DNA of 64,000 nucleotides. It comes from a virus. Taxonomy: Duplodnaviria > Caudoviricetes. The stretch lies in the IMG/VR virus record IMGVR_UViG_3300025383_000009. One strand, written 5' to 3'. Made by a program: the position numbers and the translations under genes. Position 1 is the stretch's first letter; every line of letters starts with the position of its first letter. Positions 2,475 through 45,399 of this stretch are shown piece after piece. The notes under the pieces were generated by a model. It worked only from the letters and a program-made list of their open reading frames with translations. It was not told where the DNA came from and searched no databases.

Positions 2475-2552
2475 TAGTAAGGATATTAATTCAGTAGAAT
2501 TAGTATCTGGTAGTATTATTTTAGATGTTCTAATTTAATTAAGGAGAATTAT

Positions 2553-3605: not shown

Positions 3606-3622
3606 ATATGCCACAAAATGTA

Positions 3623-3652
3623 TTGACTTATGTCATACATATATGATATGAT
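3623..3652 (+). promoter_or_regulatory. sigma70-type promoter
   Basis: TTGACT-N18-TATGAT with extended TG, upstream of the wHTH gene. Confidence 0.6.
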
Positions 3653-3705
3653 GTTATTTCTCGTTGTGATACGAGGTTTTTTATTAAATTATGAAGGAGT
3701 TATAT

Positions 3706-3972
3706 ATGAAGTTATCAGCAAAAGAAAAAATGTTAGCAGCCTTAAAACAAGAATCTGGCTACAACACATTCACAGTTAAGCAAGCACAACGCCGTTTTGG
3801 TATCAAAAATGTGTCTGCTCGTATTGACGAATTACGTCAAGAAGGTAATGTTATCTACACTAACACAAAGTTAGATGCTAATGGTAACAAAGTAAAATAC
3901 TATCGCTTAGGCACTCCATCTAAAGCACTTGTTCAAGCTGCTTTACGTGCTGGCTATTCTTTCACTGCTTAA
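3706..3972 (+). CDS. Small winged helix-turn-helix DNA-binding protein
   Basis: NVSARIDELRQEG helix followed by beta wing KYYRLG; SD AAGGAG at 3694 places the start at 3706. Confidence 0.6.
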   Translation: MKLSAKEKMLAALKQESGYNTFTVKQAQRRFGIKNVSARIDELRQEGNVIYTNTKLDANGNKVKYYRLGTPSKALVQAALRAGYSFTA

Positions 3973-3991
3973 TCAATAAGCAGATTCAAAG

Positions 3992-4025
3992 AGGAGTTAG
4001 CCGCAATGACTAACTCCTTTTTTTT
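3992..4025 (+). terminator. Rho-independent terminator
   Basis: AGGAGTTAG-loop-CTAACTCCT followed by a T-run. Confidence 0.8.
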
Positions 4026-4042
4026 ATTATTACGGAGAGCAT

Positions 4043-4861
4043 ATGGAAATTTCAATTAAAAAAGAACAGTTACAGACAAAAAGATTATTTGTAGCAACAC
4101 CAATGTATGGTGGCATGAACCATGGTTTATACATGAAGTCATGTTTAGATTTACAAGCTATTTGTATGCAATATGGCATTCAAAGTAAATTCTCATTCCT
4201 ATTCAATGAATCATTAATTACACGAGCAAGAAATTATCTTGTTGATGAGTTTATCCATCGTTCAGATGCTACTCATTTACTATTCATCGACTCTGACATC
4301 AATTTCAATCCACAAGATGTTATTGCTATGTTAGCATTAGATAAAGATGTTATTGGTGGTCCTTATCCTAAAAAGGCAATTAAGTGGCGTTCAGCAGCTA
4401 CAGCACTTAAAAAGAATCCAACTATGAACCCACAAGATTTAGAAAAAGTTGTTGGTGATTTCGTATTCAATCCAGTTAAAGGCACGGCTCAATTTAATGT
4501 ATCAGAACCATTAGATGTATTAGAAATTGGTACAGGTTTCATGATGGTAAAACGAGAAGTGTTTGCTAAAATGGAAAAACAATATCCAGAAATTAGATAT
4601 AAACCAGACCATGTTGGTCAAGCACACTTTGACGGTTCAAGATACATTCACGCTTTCTTTGATACCGTTATCGATACAAAAGATAGTATCACAGGTGGCG
4701 GCTCTGACAGATACCTTTCAGAAGACTATATGTTCTGTCAAATGTGGCGTAAAATGGGTGGACAAATCTACTTATGTCCATGGATGAGAACTGCACACAT
4801 TGGTACCTATCACTTCCACGGTGATATGCCTGCTGTTGCTAATTTTGTTGGAGAAATGTAA
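4043..4861 (+). CDS. GT-A fold glycosyltransferase-like protein
   Basis: FVATPMYGG, ESLITRARN, THLLFIDSDI (DxD), EIGTGFMMV, YLSEDYMFC. Confidence 0.55.
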   Translation: MEISIKKEQLQTKRLFVATPMYGGMNHGLYMKSCLDLQAICMQYGIQSKFSFLFNESLITRARNYLVDEFIHRSDATHLLFIDSDINFNPQDVIAMLALDKDVIGGPYPKKAIKWRSAATALKKNPTMNPQDLEKVVGDFVFNPVKGTAQFNVSEPLDVLEIGTGFMMVKREVFAKMEKQYPEIRYKPDHVGQAHFDGSRYIHAFFDTVIDTKDSITGGGSDRYLSEDYMFCQMWRKMGGQIYLCPWMRTAHIGTYHFHGDMPAVANFVGEM

Positions 4862-29197: not shown

Positions 29198-29205
29198 TAT
29201 TTATA
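29198..29205 (-). promoter_or_regulatory. T4 late promoter
   Basis: TATAAATA upstream of the GT gene. Confidence 0.7.
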
Positions 29206-29917
29206 ACGACAGGGCTTGATCCTGTACATCTTTTTTGTATCGAGCCATCTTGTCTAAGTAACCTTGATTACGTAGTTCCTTAAACACTAGGTTCTCGAAT
29301 GAGAATTCACCACCTTTTAGGATGGCAGCGCCTCTCATGTCTCTTAGTTTATCCTTGAGGTTATTGAATGCTTCTACATCCATCTTGTTCTTGATCATAT
29401 CATCGATCATATCCATATAGAACTTAATCTTCTTCTTAAGGTATGGGTTCTTTAGGAAATCATCACCAATGAATTCTGGCTTGGCGATCCATTCATCCTT
29501 TGTCAATGAATAGACACCTTGGTCTTTAGGGTATGCTACTGACTCATCTTGTGCATAAGGCTCAAGACCATATCCAAGGATGGTGATCTTATGGGCCATA
29601 GTCCACATGACTTTCTTATCTTGTAAGTAGTCGTCTAGTAATGGGTTATCTTTGGCAATCTCGGACTTATTAACAACCAAGTGAACATCAATATCAGATA
29701 GATCAGTATAGTTGTAGTTGGCGTTGCCGCCGAGCATGATAACTTCTTTAACTGCACTTTTAGGGATCTTAGCAAATTCTCTCCATGCTTCTGCAAACTG
29801 AAGTAGCTTGGCTCTTACTTCAGGCTTTAGTTGGTATTCGTTCCAGAGTTTTGGGTTTAGTTCGGTATGGTACTGTAGTTGAAGTTTTAACTCTGATATG
29901 TACTGAGCGTATTTCAT
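29201..29917 (-). CDS. Pol-beta-superfamily nucleotidyltransferase with CTS-like N-terminus
   Basis: GGNANYNYTDLSDIDVH; starts MKYAQYISE; GEFSFENLVFKELR. Confidence 0.75.
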   Translation of the reverse strand: MKYAQYISELKLQLQYHTELNPKLWNEYQLKPEVRAKLLQFAEAWREFAKIPKSAVKEVIMLGGNANYNYTDLSDIDVHLVVNKSEIAKDNPLLDDYLQDKKVMWTMAHKITILGYGLEPYAQDESVAYPKDQGVYSLTKDEWIAKPEFIGDDFLKNPYLKKKIKFYMDMIDDMIKNKMDVEAFNNLKDKLRDMRGAAILKGGEFSFENLVFKELRNQGYLDKMARYKKDVQDQALSL

Positions 29918-31885: not shown

Positions 31886-32830
31886 TTAAGCTGTTACTGT
31901 TAATGTTACTGCGTTAGAGATAGCATTTGTATTAGCTGTATCAGTACCACAGATTACACGGATCTTCATACCAGTATCACCTACAGCTAGATGGCCAGAA
32001 TTAATACCTAATGTATTAGTATTATAGCCCTTCCATGCTGCACCGCTGATGTTAGTCCATGTAGTACCACCATCAGTACTTTGTTGCCATTGGTATGTTA
32101 AGCTATTATAAGCACCAGTTGCAGCAGAAGTTACTGTGAATAATGCATCAACTCCAGCATTTGCTGCAGCTGTAGCGTTAACCGGTTGTGCAGTAATGAT
32201 TGTAGTAGCATCAAGTAATACTGAATCGTCAGCTGTACCTGTTGCACCAGAAGCACCTTTAGCTGGGTTAGCATCACCTGTTACTGATTGTGTTTGTGCT
32301 GAGCCCATAGCTATTAAGATCTCTGATTTATGACGTACGTTACCGTTAGAGTCTGTATATGATACATACTCAACCCAACCTGGTGTCTTAAGACCACGAC
32401 CACGGTTTTCAGCGTTTGAAGCTTCGTCTACGTCTTCGAAGTATAAACCTCTACCGTTGTAGTTATGGTCATTAACGTTAGCTTCACCAGTACGTTGTAG
32501 TGTTTGAACGCCAACACCAGCACCTGTTAAGTTAACTTTACCTGTAGCACCACCCGCGATAGCATTAGCTTGTGTATCATAAAGACTGATAATACCTGAT
32601 GTAGCTGTAAGACCTACATAGTAAGTTTTACCGTCTGTTAAGCCACCGATGACTGTACCACCATTGATTGAATATACAACACCGTCGCCCTTAGCGAAGT
32701 CAGTGTTTGCACCCGTTAAATCTATTGTTTCTGCTGTAGTATTAACAGTCGTTGCACTGTTAAAGTACGCAATCCTTGCGACATACTTAGGCTTTGAAGC
32801 CTGATTGTCGTGATTTCCCCATAAAGCCAT
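31886..32830 (-). CDS. Virion structural protein with C-terminal Ig-like domain
   Basis: MALWG, PGWVEY-YTD-G-RHKSE; ITAQP...LTYQWQ...W...AVTLTV; late promoter upstream. Confidence 0.65.
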   Translation of the reverse strand: MALWGNHDNQASKPKYVARIAYFNSATTVNTTAETIDLTGANTDFAKGDGVVYSINGGTVIGGLTDGKTYYVGLTATSGIISLYDTQANAIAGGATGKVNLTGAGVGVQTLQRTGEANVNDHNYNGRGLYFEDVDEASNAENRGRGLKTPGWVEYVSYTDSNGNVRHKSEILIAMGSAQTQSVTGDANPAKGASGATGTADDSVLLDATTIITAQPVNATAAANAGVDALFTVTSAATGAYNSLTYQWQQSTDGGTTWTNISGAAWKGYNTNTLGINSGHLAVGDTGMKIRVICGTDTANTNAISNAVTLTVTA

Positions 32831-32855: not shown

Positions 32856-32863
32856 TATTTATA
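32856..32863 (-). promoter_or_regulatory. T4 late promoter
   Basis: TATAAATA. Confidence 0.75.
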
Positions 32864-35441
32864 CTCTAGCACCTGACTTAGATCCCGCTGGTCTGCCACG
32901 TCCGCGTTTCTCTTTTGTTTCATCATCAGGTTTCTCATCAGTCTCATCATCTTTTTGATTAGCACCACCATACGCTGTACCTTTAACTAGATTGATATGC
33001 GGATGGCTTGTATCTGGTTTAAACTTAGGATCATACGCTGATTGACTAGCTTGTCTTAACTTCTGAGCGTCTCTTAAGTCATCGATCTTACCTTCATCCA
33101 TAACTGCTAAAGTACCTTTAACGTATGGAGACATTTCTTGTGAAACTTCTTCTTTAACACCAGAAGCTTTATGAATTTTCTCATGAGCTTTGCTTGATTG
33201 ACGTAATGCAGCATCATCAGATCGAGAAGCTTTTCCATCATCCATATTATCATAATGATATCTTTGTTTAAGATGATGAGCTACTGACTTTTCAACATCC
33301 TTACCAATGCCCTTATCACCTAGCTTTTTAGAAGCTCTTGCTAAACCTGTTAATCTATTTTGAAGTGGTTTATGACCATATTTTCCTTGATTATTTTTTC
33401 CACCTTGAATTTCAAGTTCATGTCTTGTAGGTGTTCCACTATCATATGCATCATGTGCTTTATCTTGAGCATCATCCGTAGCTTTATGAGCATATGAACC
33501 TAAAGTCTTTTTAGATAATTCATCAATCTGTGTTAACTTTTCTTCGATGCGTTCTACTTCTTCTTTAGATAATGATTGCATACCACGTTGAGCTAAAGCT
33601 TTAGCACGATCCATACCTTTACCAGGTTCTACTGGTTTCTTGAAGTGAGTATCTGCTTGTTGTGCAGTCTTATGACCGGCAACAATAGCAAGTTCTTTAC
33701 CTGAGATACCATGTTGTTTACCAACTGTCTCATAATCTGTAGGTGTAAACTGTTTATGACTTGAGTAACCCTTCTTGGTAGCATGATCCATCATGTCAGT
33801 ATAGATGTCTTTCATCTTGCCTTCATCGATCTTACCTTCATCCATAACTTGTAGTGTAGCTTTAAGGTATGGTGATATCTCTTGTGAAACTTCTTCTTTA
33901 ACAGGGTTACCAGTCTTAGGATCTAACTTAGTAACTTTACTAAAGTAATGTGAGTGTTGTTTCATTGCATCTGAAGATTTTACTGGTTTAGCCATTGAAT
34001 CATTTTTAGACCAACCGTCTTTAGGAAAACGCATTTCGTCCTCACACATTTCGCCTTCGTTAACACCAGCTGCTTTCATGAACTTAGCATGATCGAAGCG
34101 TGGGTTTTGTTTAGCGAAGATACCTGCATGATGTGTAGCAAGTTCTTTACGTTTCTCTGCAGATTCGTGACCTTTAATAAGATCAGCAACCATTTGGAAG
34201 TCTTTACGTGTAGTAGCTTCTTCTAATTCTACTTCTTCTTTAGCAATCTTCTTGCCAGCTCTTTCTAAACCTGACATCCTGTTAGAAGCACGACGACCAT
34301 GCTCTGATGCTTCTGGAGCATCATCATTTTCTTCTGCATCACGCTCATTATGGATAGACGATGCTAAATCTGATGAAGCTTTCTTAACGTAGTTACCTAA
34401 AGTCTTATTAGATAACTCATCGATCTGTGTTAACTTCTCTTCGATGCGTTCTACTTCTTCTTTGGATAATGATTGCATGCCGCGTTGAGCTAAAGCTTTA
34501 GCACGATCCATTTCATGGCCTTTTTCTACTGGCTTCTTGAAATTTGTAGGATCGTAATGATGTTTAGGATGACCATAGTGTTTATGGAACTCGTCATGAC
34601 CCATGTTTTGTAAGTCATAAGCAAGTTCTTTCATCTTACCTTCATCTAACTGAACGTCTTCTTTTAATTTGTCAACAGCTTTATCATGGCCTTTCTCACG
34701 CTTCCATGCTTGAGATTGGTATTTGCCAGCAAGACTATCCCATGTTTCTTTCTTTCTTGGGTTTCTTGCATGTGCAGCTTTACTCTTAAAGTCTGCAGCT
34801 ACATGTTGTTTGATACGTGCATCATGTGAAGCTTTCTTAGTATATGATGCTAATGTGTCTTTTGATAACTCATCGATCTGTTCTACTTCTTCTTTTTGTA
34901 CTTTAACAGGGTATGTTTTACCTTGGAACTCAAACTCTTTCTTACCCTCTTTATGAGCTGCATGAGCTGCCATACGGAGACCTGATTCGTCTACGTCTGC
35001 CTCTGACATCTTAGCTTTACCAGCTTGTGCAGACCAAGATTCTTTAACATGCTTTTTCTCTAATCTTTCAGCTTTTAATCTATGATACTCAGATGCTCTT
35101 TCATGACCAAAATATGAACCATGTTCTTCTTGATTAGCTGGACTTAAGTGATGTTCACCGGATTCTGATTCATGATGAAAAATTCGTGCTTCATCATGAT
35201 GAGTCTCCATGTGTTTATGATAAGCATGCATGTCACCTTTTTTCTTTGCAGCTTCAGCTTTTTCTTTATGCTTAGTGATCTCATGAGCCCATTTATTAAT
35301 GTCTTTAGCTTCACCATGTTCAGCACCGCTATCATAATCAGATCTCTTTGTAGATAAAGGTTCATGTTTCCAATGAGAATCTTTAATATTCTCCTCATTG
35401 AGCTGTACATTTTCCTTTAAAAAATCATTGAACTTTAACAT
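32859..35441 (-). CDS. 860-aa modular His-rich protein with CTS-like N-terminus (putative internal-head polyprotein)
   Basis: Starts MLKFNDFLKE; repeated (K)EEVE-x-IDE-LSKxTLxSY modules. Confidence 0.7.
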   Translation of the reverse strand: MLKFNDFLKENVQLNEENIKDSHWKHEPLSTKRSDYDSGAEHGEAKDINKWAHEITKHKEKAEAAKKKGDMHAYHKHMETHHDEARIFHHESESGEHHLSPANQEEHGSYFGHERASEYHRLKAERLEKKHVKESWSAQAGKAKMSEADVDESGLRMAAHAAHKEGKKEFEFQGKTYPVKVQKEEVEQIDELSKDTLASYTKKASHDARIKQHVAADFKSKAAHARNPRKKETWDSLAGKYQSQAWKREKGHDKAVDKLKEDVQLDEGKMKELAYDLQNMGHDEFHKHYGHPKHHYDPTNFKKPVEKGHEMDRAKALAQRGMQSLSKEEVERIEEKLTQIDELSNKTLGNYVKKASSDLASSIHNERDAEENDDAPEASEHGRRASNRMSGLERAGKKIAKEEVELEEATTRKDFQMVADLIKGHESAEKRKELATHHAGIFAKQNPRFDHAKFMKAAGVNEGEMCEDEMRFPKDGWSKNDSMAKPVKSSDAMKQHSHYFSKVTKLDPKTGNPVKEEVSQEISPYLKATLQVMDEGKIDEGKMKDIYTDMMDHATKKGYSSHKQFTPTDYETVGKQHGISGKELAIVAGHKTAQQADTHFKKPVEPGKGMDRAKALAQRGMQSLSKEEVERIEEKLTQIDELSKKTLGSYAHKATDDAQDKAHDAYDSGTPTRHELEIQGGKNNQGKYGHKPLQNRLTGLARASKKLGDKGIGKDVEKSVAHHLKQRYHYDNMDDGKASRSDDAALRQSSKAHEKIHKASGVKEEVSQEMSPYVKGTLAVMDEGKIDDLRDAQKLRQASQSAYDPKFKPDTSHPHINLVKGTAYGGANQKDDETDEKPDDETKEKRGRGRPAGSKSGARV
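33079..33902. repeat. ~80-bp imperfect direct repeat (33079-33158 and 33823-33902)
   Basis: Both copies encode KEEVSQE-SPY-K-TL-VMDEGKID. Confidence 0.85.
33499..34541. repeat. 146-bp near-identical direct repeat (33499-33644 and 34396-34541)
   Basis: Both copies encode KPVE...MDRAKALAQRGMQSLSKEEVERIEEKLTQIDELS-KTLG. Confidence 0.9.
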
Positions 35442-35442
35442 A

Positions 35443-38166
35443 TTAATATCCCTCTCTTCTTAGTTTTTTAGCGGCATCAATGATGCGTTGGTTATGTTTT
35501 GAAATCTTGCCTTTAATGCCAGCTTTTTCTGCAGGATGTTCTGCTGCTGCATGTTGTTTATGAAGCTCATGAGCATGTGTCAATGACTTACCCATATAGT
35601 CTGTCCACTTTTCATCAGTAGGCATGTTTGCTTCTGCGACTCTTTCTATGTCTGCAGTCCTGATACCAAACATCTTACGATGTTGAGATTTATGTTTACC
35701 ATACTTCTTAAAGTATTTGAGGCTATCTAAGTTTTTCATATCGTCCTCAACGTTCTTTGTTAAGAAGCCTTCTTTCATACCCATCATCTTTTTCTTTTGT
35801 TCTGCATCCTTCTTAGGAGTCTCTATGCCTTTATCAGCAGGGTTGTTTTGACCTGTAAAAGCTCTCTGTGCAACTTCTCTATTCTTAAAAAAGTTAGCAA
35901 GTACTTTATGACCTCTTGACTCTTCAACTTCTTCCTTCTTCATGACTTTAGATTGTGTCTTAACTTGCATGGTTTTAGGTTTAACTTGTGATCCTGGAAT
36001 ACCATCATGATGATGGGCTTCTGTTAATGATTTATGCGGTACAGATGTCTTTTGTGTACCATATGAACCACCATGGAAGTGTACTGTATCATTGTCACGT
36101 GTAGCTTTCCATTTACGACCTGTCTCATCTTTAAATGAATGAGATTCACCATGTTTTAACTTAGCGATTGGCTCATGGTGTTCAGGATGTAGTGGGATCG
36201 AGAATGATTTACCGTGGTTAACAGTCTTCATTGTACCCCAATCATACTTACGTGATGACACTGTTGCTTCTTCGATATGTTCTACCTCTTCTTTTTGTGT
36301 GCCAAGCTTCTTAGTAGCACGGTCAATACCAGCGATACGTTTGTTTGCTTTCTTAAAGTCTGCATAAGACTTCTTAGAGTGTTTCTCTGCAGCTTCCCAG
36401 TCACCAGCTCTTGTATAGTGTGATGCCCATTCTCCAGCTTCTTTACCTGCATAAGTATGGGAACCAACATCTCTTGATGCTTTAGGAATGTATCTCATAA
36501 GTGTTGACTTAGATACTTCATCGATCTGTACTGATTCACCAATAGTATGAGCTAACTTATGTCTTTTAGCAAATTTTTGTGCTTGTTCAACATGATCTGC
36601 ATGTCCATGAAATTTACCTGATTTATCAATATTATTTTTAATATGATTTAAATCGCGTGACATCACTTTAACATTAAAATTAGATTTGTTATGATCCAAT
36701 TCTTTATCTACAGCATCATGAAATTTAGCAGGTTCATGAAATGTAATAGATTTTGCTTCATCGATCTGCTCTTCTTTAAGTGATCTCTCTGCACGCTCAT
36801 CACCTTTAACTCTATTTGATAGCTTACGCATATCATCTTTAGCAGTCTTCTTATAAGGGCTTTGATGGATAGCATAAGCACGATTCACGTCCTTAGCAGC
36901 TTTATCTCTGTAAGATTGGTATGTGCTCTTCTTTAACTCGTCAAGGTTAACTACTTCTTCTTTAGTTAATTTTTGTTTAGGTGTAACTGTTTGTCCTGCA
37001 GTTGCAGCATCATAAGCTTGACGTATAGTCTTATACTTAGATGGGCCACCTTCAACTGGAACTCCATTTCGTGTTGCACCACCACCTGCTTGTACTTTAA
37101 TTGGTTTAGTAGCGACCATCTTCTTAGTGATAGGATCGTATACTTTAGATTCGTCTAACTCTACGTCTTCTTTAGCGAGTTTTTGTTTTGCTTTATAAAC
37201 ACCATCTGCACGATTAAGATACTTCTTATCAAGATGTTTCATTTCAGGTGTATCATCAGAGAATTTACCATGTGTTTTGTCTCTAATATCTCTGAGTTTA
37301 GAATAGTTTTGTTGATACTTATCTTCTTCCTTCTCAGCTTTCTTAACATAAGAACCTAAAGTCTTCTTTGAGATCTCGTCGATTTGTTCAACTTCTTCTT
37401 TTAATTTAGCTACTCTATGTTTGTGCATCTTAACTATATCACCGCTAGCAGTTTTAATATGCCACATATCACCAGTACGTTCTTTTGATGAACCAACAAC
37501 TGTGCCGTGTTTACCAGAATCAAGACCAGAACCAGCTAATACAGCAGCTTTATGACCAACTGCTACTTTAGCATCACGATCGATAGGGCCATGTTCATAT
37601 CCTTCTTTAAAATCTTTAACTTCTTTTTTCTTTTGTGTTAAAGGGATAGGAGGATTTAAAACCTTTTTCTTGTCAACTACATCTGTACCGATACCTTTAT
37701 ACTCAATAGCTTCTGAAAGGTGTGCATCACATGATTTATGTGGACACTTATTAACATGATGCATGAAGTTTTGTGCATGTTCTTTTGATGGGAATTTAAA
37801 GAATACACCTTTATCAGATCCACCTGCATGTTCACCACCATGTTGTTTAACACCAGCCATGACATGCTCTACATCTTTTTCATGTGGTTGTTCATCGTAC
37901 TTAGAACCATCAGATACATGTACTAAATGCTCTTCTTTAGCTTCTCTCATGTCAACTTCTGCTGTAGAATTTTGTGATACTGCAGCTGACTCTTCTCTTT
38001 GTTTAGAATAGTATGCTGCGAGTGCCATTTGTTTACGCTTTGCAGCAGACTTACCTGCAAACTTAGGATTATCTGAGTGTACAAAGTCATCTATCCACTT
38101 ACCAGCTGGTGTGGACTTGGTTAAGATCTCATCTAGTCTTTGTGTTAGGTCTTTGTACGACTTCAT
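35443..38166 (-). CDS. 907-aa modular His-rich protein with CTS-like N-terminus (putative internal-head polyprotein)
   Basis: Starts MKSYKDLTQRLDE; linkers EEVEQIDE, EDVELDE, EEVVNLDE, EEQIDE, ESVQIDE, EEVEHIEE. Confidence 0.7.
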   Translation of the reverse strand: MKSYKDLTQRLDEILTKSTPAGKWIDDFVHSDNPKFAGKSAAKRKQMALAAYYSKQREESAAVSQNSTAEVDMREAKEEHLVHVSDGSKYDEQPHEKDVEHVMAGVKQHGGEHAGGSDKGVFFKFPSKEHAQNFMHHVNKCPHKSCDAHLSEAIEYKGIGTDVVDKKKVLNPPIPLTQKKKEVKDFKEGYEHGPIDRDAKVAVGHKAAVLAGSGLDSGKHGTVVGSSKERTGDMWHIKTASGDIVKMHKHRVAKLKEEVEQIDEISKKTLGSYVKKAEKEEDKYQQNYSKLRDIRDKTHGKFSDDTPEMKHLDKKYLNRADGVYKAKQKLAKEDVELDESKVYDPITKKMVATKPIKVQAGGGATRNGVPVEGGPSKYKTIRQAYDAATAGQTVTPKQKLTKEEVVNLDELKKSTYQSYRDKAAKDVNRAYAIHQSPYKKTAKDDMRKLSNRVKGDERAERSLKEEQIDEAKSITFHEPAKFHDAVDKELDHNKSNFNVKVMSRDLNHIKNNIDKSGKFHGHADHVEQAQKFAKRHKLAHTIGESVQIDEVSKSTLMRYIPKASRDVGSHTYAGKEAGEWASHYTRAGDWEAAEKHSKKSYADFKKANKRIAGIDRATKKLGTQKEEVEHIEEATVSSRKYDWGTMKTVNHGKSFSIPLHPEHHEPIAKLKHGESHSFKDETGRKWKATRDNDTVHFHGGSYGTQKTSVPHKSLTEAHHHDGIPGSQVKPKTMQVKTQSKVMKKEEVEESRGHKVLANFFKNREVAQRAFTGQNNPADKGIETPKKDAEQKKKMMGMKEGFLTKNVEDDMKNLDSLKYFKKYGKHKSQHRKMFGIRTADIERVAEANMPTDEKWTDYMGKSLTHAHELHKQHAAAEHPAEKAGIKGKISKHNQRIIDAAKKLRREGY

Positions 38167-38168
38167 TC

Positions 38169-38627
38169 TTATTCTCCGGGTTTCTTAATTTGTTTTAATG
38201 ATGCGAGGATTTGCCATTCCCACATCTTATGTTTATCCATACGGTCTGCTACAAAGTTAGCAAGGCCTTGTTGTTTTTCTCTTGTAGCATCATCAAATAG
38301 CTCTGTCAATACGTGTAGTATCTCTGTGTTTGCATGTAGTAAGTTAACTAACATCTCACTGATGTTTTCAGGCTTAACTTTATCTTCCTCTATAGTCTTA
38401 TAGCTATGGATCTCTTCAAGGCTGATAGGTGCATACACATCAAGCTTACGCAAGTTCTCTGCAAATGGGTCTACAGCTCCATAGGTGTCTTCATAGATCT
38501 TTTGGAAGAACTTATGGTACTGACTAAAGAACATCCCTTCCACGTTCCAATGGTATGAATGACTCTTGAAGTACATACAAAACGTATTACCCAATGCAAC
38601 CTTCAACGTAGCGATTAGCTTTTCCAT
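38169..38627 (-). CDS. dps: Dps/ferritin-like protein
   Basis: HSYHWNVEG, YHKFF, DPFAE, HKMWEWQ. Confidence 0.85.
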   Translation of the reverse strand: MEKLIATLKVALGNTFCMYFKSHSYHWNVEGMFFSQYHKFFQKIYEDTYGAVDPFAENLRKLDVYAPISLEEIHSYKTIEEDKVKPENISEMLVNLLHANTEILHVLTELFDDATREKQQGLANFVADRMDKHKMWEWQILASLKQIKKPGE

Positions 38628-38629
38628 AT

Positions 38630-40402
38630 TTATTTTCTCTCGGTTTGCTGTCTCATCCATGAATCATAATCTAGGAGAGTATTAAGGTTTTCTTTTTTAA
38701 TCTTCTTTTCAAAGAAAGCACTAAAGCCTTTGCCTTTTTGTTTATTTGGTTCATCATCTGCTGGTGGTGCCATATTAGCTGGTAGTGGTACAACCTTAGT
38801 AACCTTTTGGCCTTCTACTTCACCGTCTGCCGACTCCTGTGTATACTCGCCGTCTTTTGTGATGTAGCATTCTTTACCGTACTTCTTACCAGCTGCTCCA
38901 GCTTCTCCTCTTGATTTATGAGGGCCAGATAAGATATCGTTTGACGCTGTACATCTTACGTAGTAACCAGCTTCGTGTTCAGGTTTGATCTGTACACCTG
39001 CTGTCTCGTTCTTTGTCATCACAGACTCAGTAGCATACATGACTTTACGTCTACGTAGGTGACGATCTGTCTCTAGTGTATGACCAACTTCGGTATGTTT
39101 ATGGAACGGGTACTTTTGTAAATCATCGATCTGCTGTGAGATGTTAGGGTCTAAGACTTGCTTGATCTCTTTGTCATCAGGTATGATGCCTTGGTTCATC
39201 TTATGTAGTTTCATGAAGTCAGAGTATCTTAATACGTCTTGAGCTATGTTATAGGTGTTAGATACGCCTTCCTTGATAGTCATCTTATCAAGCTCGGCTT
39301 TATGTTTTTCCCAATGTTCTTTGTGAGAATCAAAGCATCCTAGTTTCTCTAGTGATTCTCTTGACTTCTTATGAGCTTCTTGAGCATCCTTAACATGTTT
39401 AAAGCCATATAGTTCTGGCTTGGACGGGTCGAAGTCATAGATCTTAAGGTATGCATCAGTTGTCTTGATAGCATTTAACATAGCAACTGGATCTGTAGCT
39501 TTGTCCATAGTTAGTTTAAAGGCTTTTGAGCCTTGTGGACAATGATGCATATTAGTTGTCGTGTAGCCTTTGTAGGAGATCTCATGACCTTCGTTGACCT
39601 CTACTTGCTCAGGCACACAGTTAGGGACTGTCTTACCATTTTTCTTTTTAAGGCCGATAGCCTTGTAGCCTTTCCAACATGCTTTAGATAGGGACTTAGC
39701 TTCTACTAATGACACATCCTTCACCCATTTCCTATGTAAGGTGCCAGTGTTATCAACTACGACTAGGTAGTTTGATCCACGGTCCATGATCTCGTACTGA
39801 TGACCAGCAGACTCAACGATGTCACCCACATGGTAGATCTCACCTTTAAAGTACTTCTCTCTAAGTATGTCTACTGAGAACTTGATATCTTCTTTGATTA
39901 GTTCAAGACCTTGGACTTGTCTCATCTCGTTCATGATCCTACGAGCGTCAAGTTCACGTACCATTGATGGCAGTTGTTTCTTAAACGATGTAAAGTCACC
40001 CTTGGTGACCATTGATTTGATCTTTGAGAAGTCAACGTCATTGCCTGTGGTGACAACGTTCATTGACTCGTATAGCTTGGCTTTATCTTCTGAAGCAACT
40101 ACGATGACATCCTTGTACCTCTTCTTAAGAGCTGTTAGTTCAGAAGCAAAGTTTGACTCGTTCAATGCCTTAAAGTTCATTGAACCAAACATCATCTCAA
40201 GGAAGTGTAGCTTACGATCTACTGGTAGGCTATCCTTGTCTTCTGTAACATAGATTATGTGGTCGGCAGAGTTTGACTCAACTAGCTTATGGACTAGCTT
40301 AAGAGTCATCTCAGTGACCGAGGTAGGCGGGTTAAAGCTTCCGACTGTCATGATGACGGTCTTAGAAGGCAATTCCCGTATGAGTTGTCTATAGTTCTTC
40401 AT
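38630..40402 (-). CDS. CTS-bearing modular protein with degenerate cytidylyltransferase-like N-domain
   Basis: Starts MKNYRQLIRE; GSFNPPT without the catalytic His; SH3-like segment; CWKGY...VPNCVPE module. Confidence 0.65.
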   Translation of the reverse strand: MKNYRQLIRELPSKTVIMTVGSFNPPTSVTEMTLKLVHKLVESNSADHIIYVTEDKDSLPVDRKLHFLEMMFGSMNFKALNESNFASELTALKKRYKDVIVVASEDKAKLYESMNVVTTGNDVDFSKIKSMVTKGDFTSFKKQLPSMVRELDARRIMNEMRQVQGLELIKEDIKFSVDILREKYFKGEIYHVGDIVESAGHQYEIMDRGSNYLVVVDNTGTLHRKWVKDVSLVEAKSLSKACWKGYKAIGLKKKNGKTVPNCVPEQVEVNEGHEISYKGYTTTNMHHCPQGSKAFKLTMDKATDPVAMLNAIKTTDAYLKIYDFDPSKPELYGFKHVKDAQEAHKKSRESLEKLGCFDSHKEHWEKHKAELDKMTIKEGVSNTYNIAQDVLRYSDFMKLHKMNQGIIPDDKEIKQVLDPNISQQIDDLQKYPFHKHTEVGHTLETDRHLRRRKVMYATESVMTKNETAGVQIKPEHEAGYYVRCTASNDILSGPHKSRGEAGAAGKKYGKECYITKDGEYTQESADGEVEGQKVTKVVPLPANMAPPADDEPNKQKGKGFSAFFEKKIKKENLNTLLDYDSWMRQQTERK

Positions 40403-40988
40403 TTTTTGTCGCCAGTTTTTTGCTTAATATTGTTGCTGCTATTTTAGCTTTAGTTTCTTCAGACCTTGGCACTCCTTTAAATGCTGCAGATATTTTAGCT
40501 TTAGTTTCTGCGGAACGTGGAGATCCTTTTACCCAAGGGCATGATTTACCTCTTTTAGCTTCTGACATTTTCTGTTTTGTTTGTTCAGCAATAATTTTGC
40601 CTTTAGCTGAATTAGACATATTTGTTCTTTGTTTTTCAGTATAAATTTTACCTAATTTAGCTTTAGATTGTTTTTCTCTTGTTAACTTAGTAACTATTAT
40701 ACCGCTAGTACCTTCTCCACCATCTGTCATATTATATAATAACCCGGTTCCAAGATCTTTACGACCCCACCAACGGATCATACGACGTTCAAGAGCTAAA
40801 GCTCCAATCTCAGTAAGATTAGTTTCTAGTAGTATTATTTTATTCTTGTCTTTAGGCACTTTAATTCGGCCGTGTGTTTCATACGCACGATCGTTTTTAC
40901 CCTTACCAATATAGTAAGGAATGCCTTTTTTACTTAGATAGGCATATATGTAATATATAGTGCCTAATGGGCTGGGTTTATTCTTCAT
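40389..40988 (-). mobile_element. Free-standing GIY-YIG homing endonuclease with NUMOD3-like repeats
   Basis: YIYAY...YYIGKGK-RAY, YNMTDGGEG, repeated SEETKAKI; AT-rich relative to flanks. Confidence 0.88.
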
Positions 40989-41017
40989 TTAAATCCATCT
41001 ATATAAAAGTATATTAT

Positions 41018-41025
41018 TATTTATA
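41018..41025 (-). promoter_or_regulatory. T4 late promoter upstream of the homing endonuclease
   Basis: TATAAATA overlapping the upstream stop codon. Confidence 0.7.
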
Positions 41026-41257
41026 CTACAGAAAGTATCGTTTTTGTAATATTCACGACCCATCTTGCAGTTACCTCATCTTGTGCAAGCTCTGCGTTAG
41101 CTTGGACGTTACCAATCTCGGTAACTAGATCCTTATACTCTACGTCTGTAAGTATGCCATCATTGTATTGCTCTGTGATGTCATGTAACTGTTGAGCTAA
41201 TGCGCCTTTGATTCCCGGCTCTGCCATGGCAGATCTTAATTCGGTTAAAACACTCAT
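41021..41257 (-). CDS. 78-aa helical protein, paralog of 13761-13997
   Basis: ITEQ, L-D-EY--LV-EI, DE---RW; ATGA coupling. Confidence 0.75.
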   Translation of the reverse strand: MSVLTELRSAMAEPGIKGALAQQLHDITEQYNDGILTDVEYKDLVTEIGNVQANAELAQDEVTARWVVNITKTILSVV

Positions 41258-41610
41258 GATCTTCCTTTCCATGCTGACTCAATCACTTGAAGACGAGTCC
41301 TATTAAGTTTAATGGTGGCTTCACAGTATGCTGGGCTTCCGTCTCTAGCTTTTTGTGCTGCGATGTAGAACTCAGTTACTGCCTTCTGTTGAGGGTCATC
41401 CCTCCATGCTGTATATACATCCAACCAACGGGCATCCTCAATAAGCTTTGCCCAGTCAACTTCTTTCTTATCATTGCAAGATACCTTCTCAATATCTACT
41501 TTAAGGTCTGTAAGCTTGGCTGCTTCTGCAGTATCATGATGCTTGGGTAGTAGGTTAGTTATAGCACACCCATTCAATAGTAGTACACTTACTAATAGTA
41601 GTCTCTTCAT
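41254..41610 (-). CDS. Lipoprotein, paralog of 13994-14350
   Basis: Lipobox LNGC; RDDPQ. Confidence 0.75.
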   Translation of the reverse strand: MKRLLLVSVLLLNGCAITNLLPKHHDTAEAAKLTDLKVDIEKVSCNDKKEVDWAKLIEDARWLDVYTAWRDDPQQKAVTEFYIAAQKARDGSPAYCEATIKLNRTRLQVIESAWKGRS

Positions 41611-42221
41611 TACTTGCTCCCTTGTTGTACGTCATGCATTAGTTCTTTTGCATGTTTATCTGATACATGCTCTGGTACACCCTTACGAAACTCATGGAAG
41701 TTACCTGATTTTGCATGCTCTCTTTGTTTAGTGCCTGATACGCCTGATGTACCCTCAGAATCTGGATCTCTATGACCAGCAGAGTGTACTGTTATCTTCT
41801 TAAAGTTATAATGCCCGTGTCCGGCTTTCTTGTTATTATACCTATTTAACAGCGTCGTCATCTCCTTCTTACGATCTGATCCTACCACAACATGTAGGTG
41901 AGTTACACCTTTCTTATGTAGATCAGCTGCATGGTGTAATATGGTTGGATGCTCGGCAGATGATGCCTTAATGTTTGTCTTAGGTGAGAAGCGTTTAAGG
42001 TGTTTAAGCTTTTGCTCTGGTGATAGTGGGTTCTTTTTCTTATCATGGCTATGTGATGTCACCACTGTATGACCAGCTTCATGTTTATCAGCCACGTCAT
42101 GGACCTTCTTGATAAGTGAAAGATGACCAGTCGTAGGAGGGTTCATACGACCATAAGTCAATACATGATGCTTAGCACCAGTATCCTCTGTGATAAAATC
42201 TTTTAGACTTAGCAATTCCAT
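41610..42221 (-). CDS. Cytidylyltransferase/NMNAT-like (HxGH-class) nucleotidyltransferase with CTS-like N-terminus
   Basis: GRMNPPTTGH, VVGSDR, SAGHRDPD, VSGTKQR; starts MELLSLKDFITE. Confidence 0.78.
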   Translation of the reverse strand: MELLSLKDFITEDTGAKHHVLTYGRMNPPTTGHLSLIKKVHDVADKHEAGHTVVTSHSHDKKKNPLSPEQKLKHLKRFSPKTNIKASSAEHPTILHHAADLHKKGVTHLHVVVGSDRKKEMTTLLNRYNNKKAGHGHYNFKKITVHSAGHRDPDSEGTSGVSGTKQREHAKSGNFHEFRKGVPEHVSDKHAKELMHDVQQGSK

Positions 42222-42484
42222 TTTCTTAAAGCTAATGCCTTCCTTGTTGGTTTGCCATGTTCATCCTTCATAGGACCTTTAACTCCACCCATACGAGCGC
42301 AGAAAGACTTACGTCGTCCTGCAGCCTTACCACCTTTTTTAAGTTTGGATGGTGGTGTTGTTACAGCCATTTTTAAATGATGACCAGGATTCTCTCTGTT
42401 ATACTTATCTACACCAGCACGGGTTAAACCACCGGTCTCTGACTTGTACTTGTCTTCTTTAAGGTACTCTTTAAACGTTAGCAT
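42209..42484 (-). CDS. Small basic CTS-bearing protein (GGLT...RRKSFCARM family)
   Basis: Starts MLTFKEYLKE; RRKSFCARMGG, LALRKWNC. Confidence 0.7.
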   Translation of the reverse strand: MLTFKEYLKEDKYKSETGGLTRAGVDKYNRENPGHHLKMAVTTPPSKLKKGGKAAGRRKSFCARMGGVKGPMKDEHGKPTRKALALRKWNC

Positions 42485-43661
42485 TTGGTTTACGGTTCCT
42501 CATTAAGTTTGCACGACTAAACTCAGCTCTATCTACAAGCTTTGTTGGTTCGTTCTTATGGTTAACTACATAGCCTTCTGGATGTGTCTCCTTACCTTCA
42601 ATGTGATGGCTTAGAGTTCCAGGATGTTGGTTCAATGTCTTTACCAATACGTTCTTTGCTTTTTGGATATGCTGATGCATCTTCAATAAGTTCTCGTATG
42701 AGCTTGCATGCTTATTGATATGGTTAATTTCTTGCTGTGCACCGCGTTGCTTCTCTTCTGCAGCCTTTGTAGTCTTAAGCCTTGATTGGACGATCTGTGA
42801 TTTGTCCATGACATGTTGCTGTAAGCCTCTTACTGTTGGCTTTGCGTTGTTTCGTACTGTTTGGTTGATGTATGTAGCTAGATGACCAGATGCACCTTGA
42901 TGTGGCTCAGTAGCAGCATACATAGTCTTCTTATGTTCGTCATGGATCTTTTGTGCAGCATCCATATGTTTATGAAACTCTTGTTGAGCTTTGTCTCCAT
43001 AGTTTATGATACGTGTATCATGCTCAGCAGTCTTATGCCATACATCTGGATGCTGTCTGAACTTATGCTCGATCTCAGGGCTTGCCTTCATATCACCTAT
43101 ATCTCGACCATGATACTGCTGATGGACGACTACGCCAACCTTTGCTTTCTTAACTTTATTAGCTTCTTGTCCATGAGCTGAGTAGGTAATGGTATTTGGA
43201 GTAAACGAAGTTGATCCGTTTGGATTATGAACCACATCATGATGACTAAACATCATGTCGCCTTGATAGACACCTTTCTTAGGAGTTACCTTTGGTAGAT
43301 GTGTTAATGCATCTTTAAGTTTTTGCACAAGACCTGGAGCATGACCATGATTTCTTTCAATGTCTTCAGGCGTATGGTTAATCTTAGGGTTCTTATTGAA
43401 TGCAGACTTGGTAGCTACAAAGAACTTACCCGTCTTTGGATGATGACCGAATACGATCGCTGGTGAGCCATCATACTTCATCGTTAGGCTTTTATCCTTC
43501 TTACCAGACTTGATATGCTCAGACGCTTGGTTCAATGCACCCTTTGCATGCTCAAAACCTTTGGCTCCATTGATAAGAGGTCTATCCTCAGGATGGGCTA
43601 TATGTGATACTTTGCCCTCTGTAGATATAGCTTCTGTTAAGTATTGTGAAAATGATATCAT
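42471..43661 (-). CDS. RNA-ligase-like nucleotidyltransferase with CTS-like N-terminus
   Basis: Ligase motif I KYDG, FVATK, YQGD, motif IV EGYVV, motif V KLV; starts MISFSQYLTE. Confidence 0.6.
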   Translation of the reverse strand: MISFSQYLTEAISTEGKVSHIAHPEDRPLINGAKGFEHAKGALNQASEHIKSGKKDKSLTMKYDGSPAIVFGHHPKTGKFFVATKSAFNKNPKINHTPEDIERNHGHAPGLVQKLKDALTHLPKVTPKKGVYQGDMMFSHHDVVHNPNGSTSFTPNTITYSAHGQEANKVKKAKVGVVVHQQYHGRDIGDMKASPEIEHKFRQHPDVWHKTAEHDTRIINYGDKAQQEFHKHMDAAQKIHDEHKKTMYAATEPHQGASGHLATYINQTVRNNAKPTVRGLQQHVMDKSQIVQSRLKTTKAAEEKQRGAQQEINHINKHASSYENLLKMHQHIQKAKNVLVKTLNQHPGTLSHHIEGKETHPEGYVVNHKNEPTKLVDRAEFSRANLMRNRKPNANV

Positions 43662-43662
43662 A

Positions 43663-44754
43663 TTATCTTAATGTAAATGTTCCTGCAGTACCTTTATGCG
43701 GACCTGATGTTGATTTAAAAGTCTGTGTAGCTACAGCTTTAACTTTACCATGATCTTTATGACCAGGATTATGGTATGTACCATGGATCGTAGCGCTGAT
43801 GCCACCATGTTTAACATGTAAGTTCTTAAAGTGTTTAAGGTGTTCGTCAGCTATGTGCTCTGAATCATGGACATGTGATGTAGCGGATCCATCATCATGT
43901 ACATGGCTATGAGCTACAAGGTGCTTGAACTTAGTTGGAGGGGATACTTGATCTCTAATATGCTTCCTAAGTTCTGAATCAGACTTCTTAGATAATCCTT
44001 TTGCGTGCTCCTTAGCCATAGCCGTTCTTACAGCAATAGATGATTGTTCAGCTTCATGGGCGCGCTTAGCATCTTTAGACTTTGGTTTAAATTCACCCGT
44101 ACCTTTATGTGCTTTCTTTTCTGCTTCTAACTTAGCTTTATCCATCTTATAGTGTTCGTGTCTTTGCTGTGTAGTACCGTGATAGCCAATAATTTGCATA
44201 TTGTTTTCATGGGCTTTTTGGAGTTTAGTATAGATCCCATGTTTACCTGAATGCTTTTCAAGTGATGCTAGTCCAGCATTCTTAAAATTAGGTTGAGCGT
44301 TTGAACCATACTTTGCTGATATCGGATGGAAATGTTTCTTACCTTTCTTATCATGAGAAGTTACTATCACGTCTGCGTTTGAGTTAACATCCTTATGACC
44401 TGTGGTCTTTTCATGATCTCCAGCTTTTTTCTCTGTGTCTCTGTTGGAAGTCCAATGAACTGCATGGATAGTATGACCTTTTGGGATATGTTTCTTTATC
44501 TCACCTGCAGTTTGCTTAGCATGTTTGTCTATCTCTTTGTATGCTGCATCACCAATCTTTTTCTTTAGTTTAGTGTGTACTTGTTCAGGTGTTCCAGAGT
44601 GTTCAGGGTTATCTGACACAGCTCTATGGTGTTCAGGGAGTTTACCTTTTGGATGGAGATGCTTAGCTAATAATAATTCATGCATCTTACCTTTATCATC
44701 AGCGGCCACTGAAGAGGTTGCAGATTCTACTAAAAAGTCATTAAAGCTTAACAT
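43663..44754 (-). CDS. His-rich CTS-bearing protein, possible PD-(D/E)xK nuclease
   Basis: Starts MLSFNDFLVE; G-x-x-E...NADVIV...ISAKY. Confidence 0.5.
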   Translation of the reverse strand: MLSFNDFLVESATSSVAADDKGKMHELLLAKHLHPKGKLPEHHRAVSDNPEHSGTPEQVHTKLKKKIGDAAYKEIDKHAKQTAGEIKKHIPKGHTIHAVHWTSNRDTEKKAGDHEKTTGHKDVNSNADVIVTSHDKKGKKHFHPISAKYGSNAQPNFKNAGLASLEKHSGKHGIYTKLQKAHENNMQIIGYHGTTQQRHEHYKMDKAKLEAEKKAHKGTGEFKPKSKDAKRAHEAEQSSIAVRTAMAKEHAKGLSKKSDSELRKHIRDQVSPPTKFKHLVAHSHVHDDGSATSHVHDSEHIADEHLKHFKNLHVKHGGISATIHGTYHNPGHKDHGKVKAVATQTFKSTSGPHKGTAGTFTLR

Positions 44755-44763
44755 ACATCTTCC

Positions 44764-45363
44764 TTATTTTATCGTGGTAACAGAGCCATCTTCCTTGGCC
44801 ATGTATGCCTCAAAAGTTATAGATGGGAACTCTTTCTTTAGTTTTAAAAATTCTTTTAGGTTACTCATACTGTCATCAAATAGTCTTACCCTTGAGAACT
44901 GTCTTGTCTTAAGGTAGTTCCTAATGATAATAGCTTTCTTAAAAGCTGGGATCATTTGCCCTTCGATCCTACCGGCTCTCTCGATCCTAACCTTATTTAT
45001 TGGAAACCCATACTTACTAAAAGTAGCAAGTACTTTGTTCTTATCATCAAAGTTATTCCTAGCTGTGATGATGACTACTTTACTATTAGGTGTATTAGCT
45101 GCGTTCTTAGCGATGGCTCTAGCTTTGTTAAACATCTTAGAGATCGGTGTAGACTCTTTAAGAAACTTCTCGGAGCTAGCAAATTGGGTGAAGTCAAACT
45201 TCTCCCCTGGCTTCAACTTATAATCGTTGAACTGTTGGTTGGTGAGTGTCTTTACTACCTGCCCATTCTTGACCACTCCTACTTGTGCCGTAGTCTTGAA
45301 TAAGGTATCATCTATATCAAATATAGTAAGACCACCATTTAGGTTTTGTAATTCTTCAGCCAT
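44764..45363 (-). CDS. HAD-superfamily phosphatase
   Basis: FDIDDTLF, IITAR, LFDDSMSNL. Confidence 0.8.
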   Translation of the reverse strand: MAEELQNLNGGLTIFDIDDTLFKTTAQVGVVKNGQVVKTLTNQQFNDYKLKPGEKFDFTQFASSEKFLKESTPISKMFNKARAIAKNAANTPNSKVVIITARNNFDDKNKVLATFSKYGFPINKVRIERAGRIEGQMIPAFKKAIIIRNYLKTRQFSRVRLFDDSMSNLKEFLKLKKEFPSITFEAYMAKEDGSVTTIK

Positions 45364-45391: not shown

Positions 45392-45399
45392 TATTTATA
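45392..45399 (-). promoter_or_regulatory. T4 late promoter heading the CTS cluster
   Basis: TATAAATA just downstream of the gp41 terminator. Confidence 0.78.

Follow-up and report, generated by a model that had tools for sequence, protein, structure and literature searches.

The question raised by this locus is what kind of product is made from genes that read as strings of short, recurrent blocks. The window, by which we mean the whole 64,000-nucleotide (nt) stretch of viral DNA analysed here (IMG/VR record IMGVR_UViG_3300025383_000009, Caudoviricetes), carries three long, co-directional open reading frames (ORFs) on its minus strand: p860 (860 amino acids, aa), p907 (907 aa) and p590 (590 aa). 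A preliminary description had regarded all three as small blocks joined by acidic linkers, from which a prohead protease would release dozens of peptides per gene as an anti-defence arsenal. Our linker scan confirmed this architecture for p860 and p907, each of which is a string of about 10 modules, but not for p590, which is an enzyme-like multidomain protein with one linker only. We propose that p860 and p907 are internal (ejection) proteins that are targeted to the capsid and cut at their linkers by the prohead protease. Capsid targeting as such appears probable to us; the complete model, cleavage included, is put forward tentatively, at somewhat less than an even chance.

Modular architecture of p860 and p907

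Genes in this stretch are tightly packed, either overlapping or separated by 1-2 nt, and p860 starts 1 nt past the stop of p907. Both proteins are rich in Lys, Glu, Ala, Asp and His, the latter amounting to about 6% of the residues. The layout of p907 was delineated from the ORF, the linker scan and the breakpoints of alignments to homologs, and comprises the following segments, in which CTS stands for capsid-targeting sequence and SKxTL for the module type described below.

35443-38166, minus strand: p907, a mosaic of a leader and about 10 modules
38128-38166, minus strand: CTS-like leader, aa 1-13, MKSYKDLTQRLDE; E13 is invariant among 44 homologs
37987-38127, minus strand: helical N-module, aa 14-60, the most conserved one (ILTKSTPAGKWIDDFVHSDNPKF...MALAAYY)
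37702-37938, minus strand: alpha/beta (ferredoxin-like) mini-domain, aa 77-155; pLDDT 74-91, match to phrog_26930
37375-37398, minus strand: linker 1, EEVEQIDE, aa 257-264, from the pattern scan
37150-37374, minus strand: SKxTL module 1, aa 265-339, with terminal linker EDVELDE
36937-37149, minus strand: basic module (SKVYDPITKK...), aa 340-410, with terminal linker EEVVNLDE
36757-36936, minus strand: SKxTL-type module 2 (LKKSTYQSY...), aa 411-470, with terminal EEQIDE
36517-36756, minus strand: His-rich module, aa 471-550, with terminal linker ESVQIDE
36268-36516, minus strand: SKxTL module 3, aa 551-633, with terminal linker EEVEHIEE
35920-36267, minus strand: beta-rich and His-rich module (ATVSSRKYDWGTMK...), aa 634-749, with terminal KEEVEE
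35446-35919, minus strand: strongly basic C-terminal region, aa 750-907, net charge +14

The features of p860 are of the same kind.

32859-35441, minus strand: p860, an 860-aa mosaic protein
35412-35441, minus strand: leader MLKFNDFLKE, aa 1-10; matches MKTYQEFIAE of phage T4 at positions 1, 4 (aromatic), 7, 8 and 10
34641-34868, minus strand: SKxTL module, aa 192-267, preceded by EEVEQIDE and ending in EDVQLDE
34218-34415, minus strand: SKxTL module, aa 343-408, with terminal EEVELEE
34056-34217, minus strand: ATTRKDF...NPRFDHAKF module, aa 409-462, between LEE and VNE
33480-33651, minus strand: 172-nt internal duplication, 85% identical to 34377-34548, spanning the linker EEVERIEE-KLTQIDE and the start of an SKxTL module
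32862-32909, minus strand: AT-hook-like C-terminal tail KRGRGRPAGSKSGARV, aa 845-860, of a tail class that recurs in homologs

Linkers and the SKxTL module

The linkers follow the pattern K-E-E-V-(E)-x-[ILV]-[DE]-E and were located by a regular-expression scan. Five were found in p860 (EEVEQIDE, EDVQLDE, EEVERIEE twice and EEVELEE), five in p907 (EEVEQIDE, EDVELDE, EEVVNLDE, ESVQIDE and EEVEHIEE) and one in p590 (EQVEVNE). Six of them are directly followed by [LIV]SKxTLxxYxxKA. The scan thus agrees with the acidic linkers ending in (I/L/V)-x-E and the six blocks with an SKxTL start of the preliminary description, whose TRKDF...NPRFDHAKF, SH3-like and CWKGY...VPNCVP blocks are likewise all present in the ORF translations.

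In 123 homologous proteins, 454 linker matches were observed against 11.2 expected from residue shuffles, an approximately 40-fold excess, and the linker precedes many unrelated types of module. In the linkers of homologs, P3 is occupied by I, L or V and P2 mostly by Asp, and at P1 there are 300 cases of Glu and 15 of Asp. This bias at P1 is the selection that would be expected from a glutamyl-specific protease, and a generic acidic spacer would not produce it. The linker codons vary synonymously between copies (GAA/GAG, GTA/GTT, GAT/GAC), and the motif is therefore kept at the protein level; for the same reason we rejected the idea that the linker is conserved solely as a site of DNA recombination. 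The linker-coding DNA nevertheless forms dispersed direct repeats (30-67 nt, 61-90% identity overall), among them a 67-nt family of 6 copies with 61-79% identity, and p860 contains an 81-nt internal duplication besides the one of 172 nt. These repeats probably aid the shuffling of modules.

The SKxTL module, present in six copies in p860 and p907, consists of an N-terminal helix [LIV]SKxTLxSYxxKA, a variable middle part and a C-terminal helix KRxxGIxKAxxKLxKEE. An alignment of 58 copies shows T5, Y9, A64, E70 and E76 to be invariant, and the module, both of whose terminal helices are conserved, is a genuine domain. A profile search retrieved 4390 representatives of 50% identity clusters at E <= 1e-3, with up to 10 copies per protein; no relative with a solved structure was found by a search of the PDB.

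Relatives of the phage and shuffling of modules

A T4-like myophage origin of the window is supported by its family-B DNA polymerase, which is 54% identical to those of Synechococcus myophages, and by a gene order syntenic with that of the Kyanoviridae phage Melnitz, whose host belongs to the OM43 Methylophilales. A DnaB-like helicase, a primase and a ribonucleotide reductase are encoded as well. At least 617 homologs of p907 were detected, 500-1460 aa in size and many of them on contigs of 150-170 kb; their BLAST alignments to p907 are partial, and the endpoints accumulate at the linkers. In the nearest record, a 40.7-kb fragment (G001), p907 is 98% identical over all 907 aa, and the modules of the p860 ortholog are arranged differently, one of them being duplicated in tandem along with its linker. 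A 48%-identical relative encodes a p860 ortholog of 511 aa with another module set again. Modules are thus shuffled and duplicated between close strains, as the preliminary description, which proposed to compare module order, had expected of cassettes. Fusions of p907-type and p860-type genes occur in 20 of 120 homologs and keep the leader in an internal position (...KKESR directly followed by MLKFNDYLKE). Certain C-terminal tails recur across homologs (P0006, P0009, P0015, P0018, P0022 and others), namely the AT-hook type KRGRGRPAGSKSGARV, DDKVYDEKWK...KGAK and GGIPVHNLHLPK, which suggests a small set of conserved end modules.

Rapid module turnover, together with the lack of any known domain, might be taken to mean that these genes are non-functional hypervariable filler and that the repeats are selfish elements or products of slippage. 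This is very unlikely indeed, since the long ORFs stay intact in hundreds of phage contigs, the SKxTL profile reaches thousands of clusters (4390), conservation at the protein level is accompanied by synonymous variation, and the close relative retains 98% identity over the full length of p907.

Leaders, head genes and the prohead protease

The prohead protease gp21 of T4 cuts after L/I-x-E, according to the published motif. In the CTS of T4, MKTYQEFIAE, targeting depends on residues 4 and 7 and processing on residues 8 and 10, where an Asp in place of the Glu at position 10 prevents the cut. CTS-like leaders open 7 genes within 32859-44754, with 8 pattern matches in all among the 92 ORFs of the window. 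MLKFNDFLKE of p860 and MKNYRQLIRE of p590 fit the T4 rules (positions 4 and 7, I/L at 8, Glu at 10) exactly; the leader of p907, MKSYKDLTQRLDE, is a 13-residue variant, and relatives of p907 carry the 10-mer MKSYKDMINE. In the whole genome of Melnitz, leader matches in the first 140 kb are confined to the syntenic cluster. Four more leader-tagged genes lie upstream, in 41610-44754 on the minus strand.

41610-42221, minus strand: 203-aa cytidylyltransferase-like protein, leader MELLSLKDFITE
within 41610-44754, minus strand: 91-aa DUF6321 protein, leader MLTFKEYLKE
42471-43661, minus strand: 396-aa DUF6267 protein, leader MISFSQYLTE
within 41610-44754, minus strand: 363-aa protein, family not assigned, leader MLSFNDFLVE

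The module that begins with ILTKSTPAGKWIDDFVHSDNPKF... follows the leader ...RLDE in p907 and follows internal linkers in the mosaic proteins of two near-complete T4-like genomes: EDVELDE in G004 (mosaic of 334 aa, L076 2431-3435; 79% identity of the module) and EDVEQVDE in G006 (mosaic of about 672 aa, L104 about 2335-4353; 66% identity). As far as the sequences tell, a leader at the N-terminus and a linker inside the protein can stand in for each other ahead of one and the same module. In both genomes the mosaic gene, which has the same linkers, is located between portal gp20 and protease gp21 (Peptidase_S77), a slot that in T4 holds the gp21 substrates gp67 and gp68. Peptidase_S77 is present in each of the 5 near-complete genomes in which the p907 N-module occurs and also in Melnitz, where the gp23 propeptide ends in FLSE ahead of AAPT. 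The connection to a prohead protease made in the preliminary description thus gains from the gp21-type Peptidase_S77 of the carriers, the L/I-x-E endings of the linkers and the CTS-like leaders. A C-terminal class ...GFEEILGFAREAL among the SKxTL-profile matches resembles the C-terminus of the G006 mosaic and may mark the head-cluster type of mosaic.

The position of the mosaic paralogs in the gp67/gp68 slot would also suit sacrificial accessories of the prohead core or scaffold, which would be chopped like T4 gp22, gp67 and gp68, with their fragments expelled before DNA packaging and without a role in the next host. In T4, the core proteins are cleaved into numerous fragments, most of which are lost from the head, and the charged, helical composition is similar to that of gp22. 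We nevertheless consider such a fate rather improbable: module content differs strongly between near-identical strains, which is unusual for an assembly factor, the mostly basic pieces and one AT-hook-like tail fit retention on DNA, and folded alpha/beta and Cys-containing mini-domains are not scaffold-like.

Proposed processing pathway

In the model that we favour, the genes would be made late, and the leader of about 10 residues, of the T4-CTS type, would direct the proteins into the scaffolding core of the prohead. There a gp21-type prohead serine protease would remove the leader after [I/L]-x-E and would also cut at the end of each K-E-E-V-x-x linker, behind its terminal [I/L/V]-[D/E]-E. 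From each precursor of about 100 kDa, some 8-11 proteins would arise, small (5-18 kDa) and for the most part basic, which would stay alongside the DNA in the head and be delivered to the cell together with it. Recombination would use the conserved repeats that encode the linkers as joints at which modules are duplicated, swapped and moved between genes. p590 would be an internal protein of this kind, too, although only as regards its leader and single linker.

The dozens of peptides per gene envisaged earlier are too many, our upper estimate being about 10-12 pieces per gene. Most of the predicted pieces have a pI > 9, and basic pieces together with the AT-hook-like tail KRGRGRPAGSKSGARV would fit, although not prove, a DNA-associated cargo; that the pieces are DNA-associated or host-directed small proteins is our guess. 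We assign lower odds to the anti-defence function suggested before, as searches of PADLOC, Pfam and NCBIfam assigned no module to any family with a known part in defence or anti-defence.

Structure prediction and database searches

An AlphaFold model of p907 aa 1-420, based on an alignment of 44 sequences, contains confident separate modules at aa 21-58, 80-150 and 240-335 and has a pTM of 0.27; no single global fold is therefore predicted. Prediction from the single p907 sequence gave a pLDDT of 47, too poor for use. When the model of aa 1-420 was compared by Foldseek with the PDB and the AFDB, weak ferredoxin-like, ACT or RRM-type matches (E of at least 0.002) were obtained for aa 80-150, which we treat as an indication of fold class, not of function.

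No enzymatic domain was found in p860 or p907 with Pfam, PHROGs, NCBIfam and PADLOC, a cytidylyltransferase-like domain being present only in p590, and these scans gave no peptidase match in any of the three proteins. Sub-threshold matches to SAM_KIDINS220, HTH_60 and Cas6_IIIa (E 1e-4 to 5e-3) were rejected as noise. Megablast and tblastn searches of the phage collection with p860, p907 and p907 aa 1-260 gave no match, for which low-complexity filtering is a possible cause. A search of the ESM Atlas with the beta module of p907 was uninformative, and only two fragments of other mosaics were obtained when a stand-alone version of this module was sought.

Virion proteomics and arguments against processing

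In the proteome of CsCl-purified virions of the T4-like cyanophage S-CREM2, ORF154 (a cytidylyltransferase), ORF155, ORF156 and ORF160 were detected, and according to the authors cytidylyltransferases are a frequent finding in virions of cyanophages (PMC10665884). ORF154 has the leader MKNFSSFLTE and is 35% identical to the 203-aa protein of the window, and ORF156 is 49% identical to a 238-aa protein (MKYAQYISE...) encoded at 29201-29917 on the minus strand. ORF160 contains a CWPGY...NCV module followed by KEETEISE and matches aa 240-272 of p590, which is composed as follows and ends in a 320-aa region after the CWKGY module and the single linker.

38630-40402, minus strand: p590, with leader MKNYRQLIRE, a cytidylyltransferase-like domain (aa 11-170) and an SH3-like block (aa 176-234)
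39590-39700, minus strand: CWKGY...VPNCVP mini-module, aa 235-271, between LVE and VNE, with linker EQVEVNE

Several points weigh against packaging and linker cleavage of p860 and p907. There is no proteomic or biochemical datum for a cut at a linker or for the packaging of a p860 or p907 homolog: the detection in S-CREM2 covers homologs of neighbouring genes and one p590 module, and its authors caution about possible carry-over or co-purification (PMC10665884). The gp21-type protease is known here from the genomes of relatives, and in the window p860, p907 and p590 sit among replication genes (helicase and primase side), not among head genes. AlphaFold places the linker at aa 257-264, the only one modelled with confidence, within a continuous helix (235-297, pLDDT about 82-88), and the next two linkers of p907 are modelled, at lower confidence, at helix ends; none is predicted to be a flexible loop. 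Conservation of the linker extends to its K-E-E-V part, which the minimal motif known for gp21 does not require, and in SKxTL modules this segment is part of the C-terminal helix. Finally, [IL]xE is not depleted inside the modules (ratio 1.07); there is hence no sign of selection against extra cuts, a result that neither supports nor excludes cleavage.

The same structural features can be accommodated if the proteins are packaged but are not polyproteins, that is if only the leader is lost, as in IPI-III and Alt of T4, and long multi-module chains are injected. KEEVxxIDE would then be a helix cap or hinge and a recombination joint, in keeping with linkers in or at the ends of helices, with the KL-KEEV segment inside the conserved C-terminal helix of the SKxTL module, with the undepleted [IL]xE and with the fact that T4 internal proteins are cut only once. 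We think this somewhat unlikely. A mere acidic helix cap leaves unexplained why P1 is Glu in 300 cases and Asp in 15 when the adjacent P2 is in most cases Asp, and the occurrence of linkers before many unrelated module types, the swap of leader and linker at the same module boundary and the retention of an internal leader in gene fusions all speak against this reading.

Alternatively, the products could be late cytoplasmic proteins outside the virion, either DNA-binding or DNA-condensing ones or metal-binding repeats that work with the adjacent Dps/ferritin-like protein, and the likeness to a CTS and the linker ending would then be unrelated to a protease. The location between replication and nucleotide-metabolism genes, the Dps-like gene inside the operon, the His content and the AT-hook-like tail are in line with this idea, and the S-CREM2 detection could be carry-over. 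Yet the leader agrees with that of T4 at all positions whose function has been mapped and is restricted to the cluster, the same modules occur in a head-gene cluster beside the protease, and four homologs of the cluster were present in the CsCl-purified S-CREM2 virions. A cytoplasmic function is thus unlikely in our view.

p590 and neighbouring genes

At aa 20-32, p590 reads NPPTSVTE where its 203-aa paralog (41610-42221) keeps the nucleotidyltransferase motif NPPTTGH, the GH of which is also kept in the homologs of Melnitz, S-RIM8 and S-CREM2; because of this replacement the transferase domain of p590 may be inactive. Between p590 and p907, a Dps/ferritin-like protein (Pfam Ferritin, E 2e-18) without a leader is encoded at 38169-38660 on the minus strand, and its position is conserved in G001 and L011. 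A 199-aa protein with NUMOD3 motifs, likely a homing endonuclease, is encoded at 40389-40988 on the minus strand between an 83-aa gene and p590. Because no ORF of that size is found at the same place in G001 (L010), this gene looks like a recent mobile insertion.

Several cluster genes are preceded, at a distance of 25-40 nt, by T4-late-promoter-like boxes, among them the following two.

41018-41025, minus strand: TATAAATA box upstream of the run formed by the homing endonuclease gene, p590, the ferritin gene, p907 and p860
45392-45399, minus strand: TATAAATA box 29 nt upstream of the first gene of the leader-tagged cluster

The total of such boxes in the window is not above chance (9 versus 7.9 expected), and their placement before start codons is the only suggestive aspect. 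The first gene after the box at 45392 (44764-45363, minus strand) opens with a HAD-like FDIDDTLF motif. In the DUF6267 protein, the sequence MKYDGSPA is a motif of the KxDG type, which also occurs in ATP-dependent ligases and capping enzymes; this protein and its Melnitz counterpart both have a CTS-like leader, which is lacking in cyanophage S-RIM8. The HAD-like, the ligase-like DUF6267 and the nucleotidyltransferase genes could form a set for RNA or nucleotide repair. Just after p860, a 314-aa protein (31886-32830, minus strand) with its own TATAAATA box 26 nt upstream matches the 'head protein' family phrog_613, and its N-terminus, MALWG..., is shared with a Melnitz gene annotated as S-layer protein.

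Comparison with known systems and implications

The closest parallels to the proposed system are listed here by likeness and difference. With IPI, IPII, IPIII and Alt of T4, the system would share the T4-like phage background, the leader of about 10 residues (aromatic at 4, hydrophobic at 7, I/L at 8, Glu at 10), the [I/L]-x-E protease motif and a hypervariable, non-essential-looking basic cargo encoded outside the head cluster. The T4 internal proteins, however, are single small proteins that are cut once, whereas here up to about 11 modules per ORF are combined with a cut motif repeated in linkers of 8-9 residues, modules move between genes, and no sequence similarity to any T4 internal protein is present. 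T4 gp22, gp67 and gp68 are cut by gp21 at several L/I-x-E sites; as conserved factors of assembly, most of whose fragments are lost from the head, they differ from the hypervariable mosaics with folded mini-domains described here. The slot between portal and protease is occupied by mosaic paralogs in G004 and G006 only, not by p860, p907 or p590.

The inner-body or ejection proteins of phiKZ-like phages (phiKZ, 201phi2-1, SPN3US) are likewise large, head-internal, DNA-associated and organised in paralogous families, with multiple x-x-E sites for a gp21-related protease, properties that are predicted in our case. They belong to another lineage, have the motif S/A-x-E and unrelated sequences, and no comparable linker cassette or module shuffling has been reported for them. 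Polyvalent proteins (Iyer et al. 2017, PMC5512222) are multi-domain proteins with combinatorial architectures for which co-delivery with DNA and processing into separate effectors are predicted. They contain large enzymatic domains and their own zincin-like peptidase domains; the modules studied here are mostly non-enzymatic, 40-90 aa long and without a peptidase domain, and the proposed protease would be the capsid maturation enzyme acting in trans. Polyproteins of RNA viruses offer an analogy only, one ORF giving several products through repeated short protease sites, whereas here an accessory cargo would be cleaved inside the procapsid, and no homology exists.

A literature search with four motifs of the p860/p907 family returned no paper. 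The architecture itself is real and occurs widely, and no description of it was met in the literature searched. Judged from sequence, it is best read as a T4-type internal-protein system that has been extended to leader-tagged, linker-jointed polyproteins and that departs from the T4 paradigm by its repeated linkers. In a broader form, which is possible if doubtful, the capsid maturation protease would double as a polyprotein processor in many aquatic T4-like phages: the KEEVxxIDE cassette would string any small module behind a leader, and a combinatorial cargo of 5-18-kDa proteins would be injected and be reshuffled between the strains of a population by recombination at the linker repeats.

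Even without cutting, the strict linker cassette and the shuffling clearly exemplify recombination of phage proteins at the level of domains. Provided that cutting does occur, many small proteins would be delivered with the genome of a DNA phage in a modular, plug-and-play manner, and the T4 paradigm of one gene for one cargo would be extended to a polyprotein with exchangeable cassettes. The SKxTL module has more than 4000 cluster representatives at 50% identity, no searched module matched Pfam, and the carriers are phages of very abundant marine and freshwater bacteria; because the family is so large, unmatched in Pfam and found in such phages, a role would be assigned to a sizeable block of viral dark matter. 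Leader and linker would then constitute a sequence rule by which virion cargo can be predicted in uncultured T4-like phages, and the system would provide a natural design for packing several foreign proteins into T4-type capsids.

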